From a virus (taxonomy: Duplodnaviria; Heunggongvirae; Uroviricota; Caudoviricetes): a stretch of 64,000 nucleotides of DNA. Every line of letters begins with the position of its first letter. Position 1 is the stretch's first letter. Below, in pieces: positions 19,043-20,182 of this stretch. Below the pieces are notes generated by a model, which ran no database searches, had not been told where the DNA came from, and saw only the letters and a list, made by a program, of their open reading frames with translations. The stretch is from the IMG/VR virus record IMGVR_UViG_2562617087_000024, one strand, 5' to 3'. The position numbers were made by a program, and so were the translations under genes.

Positions 19043-20182
19043 TCAAATGACCAGTTTTTTCCATTCCTTACCGCGTGCGTCGTTGTAAATATCGATCATT
19101 TTTTGATTCGAATGGCCTAGCAAAATTTTGGTATCAACCCCCTGCTCTCTGAACAATCGCTCTGATAAAGATCTCTGCTCATGGAAAGAGGGTGGGGTGC
19201 CATTAGCACGCCAGTTGTAATCCACAGAATCCCGGGCTTTTTTAAATGCAACGGTTAATGTTGCTGGCTTAACCATCCCGCCGCGCTTAGCTGTCCCTTT
19301 CGCGTGATGGTGGTGCAATAGCCACGGACTAAGAACGCAATCGCGGCAGGATGACACCACATCATCCAGGGTGAGATTTAATTTATCGCAACGCAGAGCC
19401 AGAGGGATGGCAATCCGGGTTCCTGTTTTTTGCTGTTCGACATGAAGATAACCATCCCGGATATCCGAAAATTGCATTTTGCAAATATCTGAAAGGCGCT
19501 GGCCTGTCATCAGTGCCAGCAGCATACCGCGCTGTAAAAAGTAACCATCCTTTTCCGCTGCGTTATAAATCATCATCCACTCATCAAAAGTCAGTCGCTG
19601 TCTTGATATCCGCACCTGCGGTTTTTTTTGCAGATTCTGCAGGGTTAAAGCCTGGCGGGACATCGCCCGTTTGCTGAGCTTCCCGGAAAACATCGATCAG
19701 TACTTTCCTGAAAATTTGTCCCATTCTGTTATGTCCTCTGGCCTTGTACTCTTCCAGTACTGATACCACATCTTTTACGGTTATGGCATCTAACGGTCTG
19801 GTGCCAAAACGTTCATCAAATACCCTGAGAGGGGCCGCTTTCTGTTTCAGCGTGTTGAGTTTGATCTCGCCGTTTTCATATCTTTCCTGTTGTAATTTTT
19901 CTTGTTAATTTAATTCAAGAAAAAATAGGTAACGGTTGATGAACCGCCGGTATCACTAATAATTTTCTCCTGCAGACTGAGCATTTGTTCCATTTGCTGC
20001 CGGGCAAGACGGCTGTTCGCTTCTGCTGCAATAGTTTCTGCCAGTTTCTGGTCAATACTGCCGAGACCGTGATTTTTGCCTGTTATGGGATGCCTGTAAC
20101 GCCAGTAAACTTTGTTATTTCTTTTGTCAAAATACGGAGATAATCCCGGAACATCGGTTTTATATTTTCGCGGGCGCGCCAT
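19043..20182 (-). pseudogene. int: lambda-type integrase of the second prophage, apparently interrupted by two frameshifts
   Basis: N-terminal (19910-20182), middle (19584-19769, other frame) and C-terminal (19043-19693) fragments each resemble lambda Int regions. Confidence 0.65.

Follow-up and report, generated by a model that had tools for sequence, protein, structure and literature searches.

The closest described relatives of the integrase gene analysed here belong to lambdoid prophages of Escherichia coli O157:H7. In strain Sakai the prophage Sp9 stands alone at the ompW site, where a 121-bp duplication and a 28-bp core were mapped experimentally (PMC2669165); the same duplication and core are annotated in LC567822. 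Experiments showed that Sp9 excises and circularises, and does so spontaneously (PMC2669165). Prophages of the Sp9/Sp10 type were found not to be mitomycin C-inducible, and functional complementation of defects between O157 prophages has been documented (PMC2669165). Disrupted integrases are frequent among prophages of O157, with Sp3, Sp11 and Sp12 of Sakai as examples (PMC2669165). A tandem pair of prophages at ompW has been described for TW14359 and clade 8, and a permuted prophage copy has been discussed for the lineage of EC4115 and TR01 (PMC9997748).

The gene considered here lies in a stretch of DNA of 64,000 nucleotides, the whole of which was analysed and is referred to below as the window. 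A first-pass annotation of this stretch had proposed that the integrase of an otherwise complete prophage was broken by two frameshifts and that the prophage may be unable to excise. The comparison with related genomes revealed an integrase gene which, as recorded, is interrupted by two lesions that relatives do not carry, and two matters had to be weighed: whether the lesions belong to the chromosome or to the sequence record, and what they would mean for the mobility of the prophage. Errors of the record are slightly favoured, and non-excisability does not follow from the broken int.

Tandem prophages and attachment sites at ompW

The whole window is collinear with the chromosome of E. coli O157:H7 TW14359 (NC_013008.1 1717249-1781238), with 40 differences over 64 kb, and its sequence places it in an E. 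coli O157:H7 chromosome that is clade-8-like and differs hardly at all from that of TW14359. Positions 1-18870 form the right end of an Sp9-like prophage and carry nleA, nleH1-2, nleF, nleG and espM1, the features of this part being those of the PGAP annotation of the identical TW14359 sequence. The same part is a zone of cargo and decay, with a complete ISEc8 (IS66 family), IS630, IS256 and IS3 remnants, a frameshifted NleG-like gene and the decayed remnant of a second integrase at about 6845-7839. The broken int is the start of a second lambdoid prophage, which reaches the end of the window. Apart from int, relatives carry essentially the same prophage. A tRNA-Met is annotated by PGAP in TW14359 at the equivalent of window positions of about 35423-35493 (TW14359 locus 35414-35484); ARAGORN found no tRNA in the window, the position of the PGAP tRNA-Met included.

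Between the two prophages lies a hybrid att site (Table 1) containing the 29-nt stretch CCAGTGTGGTACATGGATATCGATACCAC at 18878-18906, which is common to all three att sites, and the attL core is intact in the window. The left flank of the hybrid site resembles the P arm of the attR of the right-hand prophage. At the other end of this prophage the first-pass annotation had found no recognisable attR, which proved to be an effect of the window edge. In TW14359 the duplicate of the 3' end of ompW with the att core lies 311 nt beyond the equivalent of window base 64000, and the att core has the same distance in a second copy of the prophage in EC4115; the attR of the window prophage is accordingly predicted just outside the window.

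The IS1 that the first-pass annotation had placed at the opposite end is situated in the right-end cargo region, away from the att site, and occupies the same position in TW14359, EC4115 and TR01, all of which have an intact int. In this region (about 61900-64000) the element stands beside what is left of a tail assembly gene (67 nt), and there are also a gene for an OspG/NleH-like kinase (62862-63452) and one fragment each of a transposase and of DUF4376. All of the right-end content of the second prophage is shared with TW14359.

Table 1. Coordinates of features at the interrupted integrase gene and in the second ompW prophage, as window positions
Feature	Position	Strand	Description
Hybrid att site between tandem prophages	18872..18997	+	phage-borne copy of ompW 3' end
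Interrupted int	19043..20182	-	lambda-type tyrosine integrase of second (right-hand) ompW prophage
int fragment 3	19043..19621	-	original frame 0 again; catalytic domain, Int residues 185-376
Lesion 2	19622..19629	.	T8 run (A8 on coding strand) where all relatives have 7; +1 insertion
int fragment 2	19630..19892	-	frame 2; Int residues about 95-184, core-binding domain
Lesion 1	19893..19927	.	35 nt replacing 27-nt palindrome, net +8
int fragment 1, 90-aa ORF	19910..20182	-	frame 0; Arm-type DNA-binding domain
xis, 82 aa	20160..20408	-	intact; PF07825; 23-nt overlap with int start
Prophage repressor	about 24672-25079 (TW14359 locus 24663-25070)		135-aa HTH-only protein
IS1	61934..62701 (end approximate; 768-bp element)	+	left inverted repeat at 61934

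Domains and lesions of the interrupted integrase

The ORF listing and a three-frame translation confirmed that the int-like sequence is in three pieces and two frames, and the interval proposed for it in the first-pass annotation matches the gene exactly, from an ATG at 20180-20182 to a stop codon at 19043-19045. The gene is 1140 nt long as against the 1131 nt (376 aa) of the intact gene, for which TW14359 and PV15-279 were the alignment references, and once both lesions are taken out its sequence is exactly that of the TW14359 gene for WP_000113671.1. In a megablast search of 5426 complete E. coli genomes the int region was found in 1731, with a best identity of 99.4%, the subject span in that case falling 9 nt short of the query. 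The best subject is annotated as an intact 1131-nt 'phage integrase Arm DNA-binding domain-containing protein' with an excisionase and ompW as neighbours. The xis gene of the window has zero differences from TW14359 WP_000113189.1.

Three Pfam domains, Arm-DNA-bind_1, the phage integrase central domain and Phage_integrase, are matched in the intact relative WP_000113671.1, the match to the central domain being under the cut-off on the full-length protein and at the cut-off on the middle fragment. Each of the window fragments represents one of the three. Fragment 1 comprises Int residues 1-85 and five aberrant residues followed by TAA, and PF09003 matched it with an E of 4.8e-23 (7.1e-22 on the intact relative). 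Fragment 2 is without a usable start codon of its own, the earliest being a GTG at 19769; PF22022 scored right at the cut-off, and the fragment aligns to the core-binding domain of lambda Int. Fragment 3, matched by PF00589 with an E of 2.4e-16, lies inside a 216-aa ORF (19043-19693), the first 24 residues of which are out-of-frame sequence. Residues R226, K249, H331, R334, H354 and Y363 of Int align with the catalytic residues R212, K235, H308, R311, H333 and Y342 of lambda Int. No uninterrupted frame joins the three domains in the window. The gene is a lambda-type tyrosine integrase by descent and a pseudogene as recorded, and a full-length integrase cannot be encoded by the sequence as written.

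Alignment with the intact 1131-nt gene revealed exactly two lesions, 264 nt apart within one 1.1-kb gene. The count of two made in the first-pass annotation was right, but only lesion 2 is a simple frameshift, lesion 1 being a complex change of net +8 by which each of the three frames acquires a stop codon in a space of about 20 nt. The interval 19600-19910 that had been singled out for checking almost covers both lesions, but lesion 1 extends to 19927. Lesion 2 consists of an extra T at 19629, by which T7 becomes T8 on the plus strand and A7 becomes A8 on the coding strand. The final piece of int is back in the original frame because the net change over both lesions is +9. Both lesions fall near boundaries of Int domains.

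At lesion 1 the plus strand of the reference reads AATTTTTCTGTAATTATTCAGAAAAAT and that of the window (19893-19927) reads TAATTTTTCTTGTTAATTTAATTCAAGAAAAAATA. The change can be derived as eight 1-nt insertions with zero substitutions, four of T in the left half and four of A in the right half, and six of the eight extend a neighbouring base run. The two stem arms are altered alike, CTG having become CTTG and CAG having become CAAG. The palindrome in the reference has a 9-bp stem and an 8-nt loop, with a DNA fold z-score of -4.3, and it spans codons 86-94 of int, where the arm-binding domain borders on the core-binding domain (window 19893-19927; TW14359 locus 19892-19918). On direct inspection it is kept in the right- and left-hand ints of TW14359 and in strain 2406_w1_hybrid, and probe identities are consistent with wider conservation in E. 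coli.

A number of origins for lesion 1 were tried and rejected. No alignment yields one contiguous block of insertion, as would be expected of an IS footprint or of an 8-bp target-site duplication, and inversion of the palindrome loop fails to reproduce the sequence. By a hand check, the 35-mer is no supersequence of the segment in its two orientations. The sequence was not copied from elsewhere in the window, where none of the 12-mers of the lesion occurs a second time, and the allele does not form a stronger hairpin, its value of -6.2 kcal/mol being weaker than the -7.1 kcal/mol of the reference.

The close coincidence of the three pieces with the three Int domains, the restoration of the final frame by the net +9 and the A8 run, which could in principle permit +1 slippage, would all suit a split int that is still functional, whether by frameshifting or transcriptional slippage or with its domains acting separately, for example with the 90-aa product as a regulator of the neighbouring Int. 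Such a function is scarcely credible, however. At lesion 1 every frame runs into a stop within some 20 nt, and no shift can bridge the gap, because the incoming frame has its stop upstream of the last one in the outgoing frame; with these three-frame stops and no frame overlap, programmed frameshifting or recoding was ruled out. The middle piece is without a start, no Shine-Dalgarno-like sequence was seen before the ATG of the 216-aa ORF, and the arrangement is conserved in none of 1710-1727 genomes.

Sequence record versus chromosome

The occurrence of the lesions elsewhere was examined with probes of 71-76 nt in BLAST searches of the 5426 complete E. coli genomes. Lesion 1 was absent from all 1710 genomes matching its probe, none of which exceeded 86.8% identity, and the 8-base run of lesion 2 was absent from all 1727 genomes matching its own, none of which exceeded 98.6%. 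Exact lesion-specific 29-35-mers had no match in GTDB representatives, IMG/VR or JGI metagenomes, and neither lesion was found among INPHARED phages, where identity was 99.0% at best. In an exact look-up among ~15 billion proteins the 90-aa ORF and a 61-aa ORF were absent, and the sole occurrence of the 216-aa ORF was UniParc UPI000310CEBB, with no contig on record. Ten further loci reached via the DnaT-like protein all have an intact 376-aa int, and none of them matches the window exactly. By these comparisons both lesions are private to the one record.

The reading slightly favoured over real pseudogenisation, with a probability of about one half, is that the two insertions are errors of the sequence record, in which case the gene of the strain would be intact like that of all relatives. 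A possible source would be finishing reads, of low quality or derived from PCR, over the int-xis repeat with its several copies; in TW14359 the int-xis module is a repeat of at least 1.5 kb with about 99.7% identity. Record error is favoured because every unusual feature sits in repeated DNA, where assemblies go wrong: apart from the int lesions and one SNP, all differences between the window and TW14359 fall in two tracts. A poorly covered stretch also fits better than two independent mutations, because the lesions are only 264 nt apart in a strain that is otherwise near-undiverged; the chance of two lesions being placed this close under a uniform distribution is about 0.018. Over-calling would fit lesion 1 in particular, because it amounts to eight 1-nt insertions, six of them in base runs, and no single known event yields such a pattern.

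The lone SNP is at 26493, in the gene for the DnaT-like protein, and here the window carries the common allele. The two tracts, 35647-38011 (DUF6645 gene) and 43599-46276 (terminase/portal), are 100% identical to a different prophage of TW14359 itself, located at NC_013008.1 2907965-2918279. They may reflect either gene conversion between prophages, over a length of at most about 10.6 kb, or else an assembly with a repeat-phase swap.

That the lesions are real is nevertheless close to an even bet, and several observations have to be set against an error of the record. Lesion 1 is symmetric about the palindrome, and a genuine replication event at a hairpin could explain it equally well. As for lesion 2, slippage by +1 in a run of 7 bases is the commonest real frameshift. 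There are no indels in other genes of the 64-kb window relative to TW14359, and among 115 homopolymer runs of at least 6 bases the T8 of int is the sole unexplained difference in length, a second differing run at about 38003 being within the first of the two paralogue tracts (35647-38011). With one unexplained change in 115 runs, a generally error-prone assembly was rejected. The same int also carries an independent +1 G frameshift in strain 2406_w1_hybrid (NZ_CP170374.1), directly beside the palindrome at about 1250 of the extracted locus; it was flagged as frameshifted by PGAP in a hybrid long-read assembly. A more elaborate version, in which a real hairpin-driven event remodels both arms and the loop of the palindrome in one symmetric step and leaves a separately translated 90-aa arm-binding domain, which would compete at arm sites and thereby damp the excision of both tandem prophages by the neighbouring Int, is very improbable.

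Capacity to excise and comparison with known systems

In TW14359 the left-hand (Sp9-like) prophage adjoins an intact ompW, and its Int is identical to that of the right-hand prophage in 375 of 376 residues, the genes differing by 3 nt and the proteins by I360T. The Xis proteins of the two prophages are identical, and the left-hand Int is identical to ECs_1757 of Sakai Sp9. Relative to the window, the left-hand int is some 41 kb upstream of base 1 and about 58 kb upstream of the broken int. Excision of the right-hand prophage in trans by the left-hand Int and Xis is plausible, an inference that takes the state of the left-hand int from the nearest genome.

Evidence that prophages of this type can leave their site comes from the genomes of EC4115 (CP001164.1 2917205-2938245, positions 1-4300) and TR01, which have a second, circularly permuted copy of the prophage away from ompW. 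The order in the permuted copy is right end (IS1 and OspG-like kinase), 29-nt core, copy of the 3' end of ompW, and int. The junction is exactly that of attP, the 2900 nt to the left of the core being the right end of the prophage and the 740 nt to its right being window 18878-19617. The prophage type has thus circularised in the lineage.

If the lesions are real, one possible and still tentative account is of a very recent, strain-private pseudogenisation in a prophage that would remain mobilisable in trans via its Sp9-like neighbour. This account is in keeping with the lack of random indel errors elsewhere in the 64 kb, with the frequency of integrase decay in O157 prophages (PMC2669165) and with the separate frameshift in 2406_w1_hybrid. 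The machinery it calls for would also be at hand: the Int of the neighbour in TW14359 differs only by I360T and is that of Sp9, which excises, its Xis is identical, the attL core is present, attR is predicted just beyond the window, and complementation of defects between O157 prophages is on record (PMC2669165). Under neutral decay, however, two independent lesions in one gene of a prophage that is otherwise nearly unchanged are improbable, and lesion 1 would require several mutational steps; the state of the neighbouring int is, moreover, taken from TW14359.

The account that goes with the first-pass annotation, in which real lesions keep the prophage locked in its chromosomal site, and which would make this a step towards domestication, is unlikely. 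It draws on the closure of all three frames at lesion 1, which leaves no full-length Int possible, and on the decay at the right end, with its IS1, tail assembly gene remnant and transposase fragments. The IS1 and this decay are however found equally in relatives with an intact int, and attR is merely beyond the window edge. Loss of an att site, by which a locked-in prophage might be recognised, was not found, the left core being seen in the window and the right core in the nearest genomes. A near-identical Int is expected 58 kb upstream, and the permuted copy in EC4115 and TR01, with its exact attP junction (PMC9997748), also speaks against locking. The suggestion that the prophage may be unable to excise could therefore not be upheld, Xis and the attL core being intact in the window and a near-identical Int (I360T) with an identical Xis being present in the neighbouring prophage of the nearest genome.

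A test of excision after mitomycin C, as had been suggested, would be weak and poorly suited to this prophage. Induction by the SOS response or mitomycin C is unlikely because the repressor (Table 1) is an HTH-only protein without an S24 peptidase domain, in agreement with the reported behaviour of Sp9 and Sp10 (PMC2669165).

Should the lesions prove to be artefacts, as is slightly favoured here, the case is one for caution in annotation, in that private frameshifts in multi-copy prophage modules need a read check before any biological reading. Should they be real, they would add one more strain-private integrase pseudogene to the known pool of defective prophages in O157:H7, and the neighbouring prophage, with its twin integrase, would probably cushion their effect on mobility. 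A by-product of the analysis is a corrected anatomy of the region, with tandem prophages, a hybrid att site and an attR just outside the window.

No new kind of system is involved, disrupted integrases of lambdoid O157 prophages being already well known. The nearest known gene is the right-hand ompW integrase of TW14359 (WP_000113671.1, ECSP_RS08880), to which the window int is nucleotide-identical save for the two lesions and with which it shares the same neighbours over 64 kb. The TW14359 gene is an uninterrupted ORF of 376 codons, whereas that of the window has +1 at 19629 and a net +8 at 19893-19927. The repaired window protein is identical in 375 of 376 residues to ECs_1757 of Sakai Sp9 and to IntE of PPompW (LC567822), and the prophages are alike in their attachment at the 3' end of ompW, the 121-bp duplication, the 28-bp core and the same Xis (PMC2669165). 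Sp9 differs in that its Int is intact, has T360 and not I360, and belongs to a prophage for which excision has been shown; it also corresponds to the left-hand member of the tandem, whereas the broken int is in the right-hand one.

With lambda Int (PDB 1Z1G, 1Z1B, 5J0N, 1AE9) the intact relative is homologous over its full length (E about 1e-55), and the two share the layout of arm-binding, core-binding and catalytic domains, the six catalytic residues and a xis that overlaps the start of int. The attB of lambda, however, lies between gal and bio and not at the 3' end of ompW, and the Int of the window type is 20 residues longer. Sp3, Sp11 and Sp12 of Sakai are, like the window prophage, lambdoid prophages of O157 in which int is inactivated and much of the genome is kept, and they were predicted to be non-excisable (PMC2669165). 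Their defects are fixed in the strain and shared with relatives, whereas the lesions in the window are private to one record, and, unlike them, the window prophage has a near-identical Int next door, as judged from the nearest genome.
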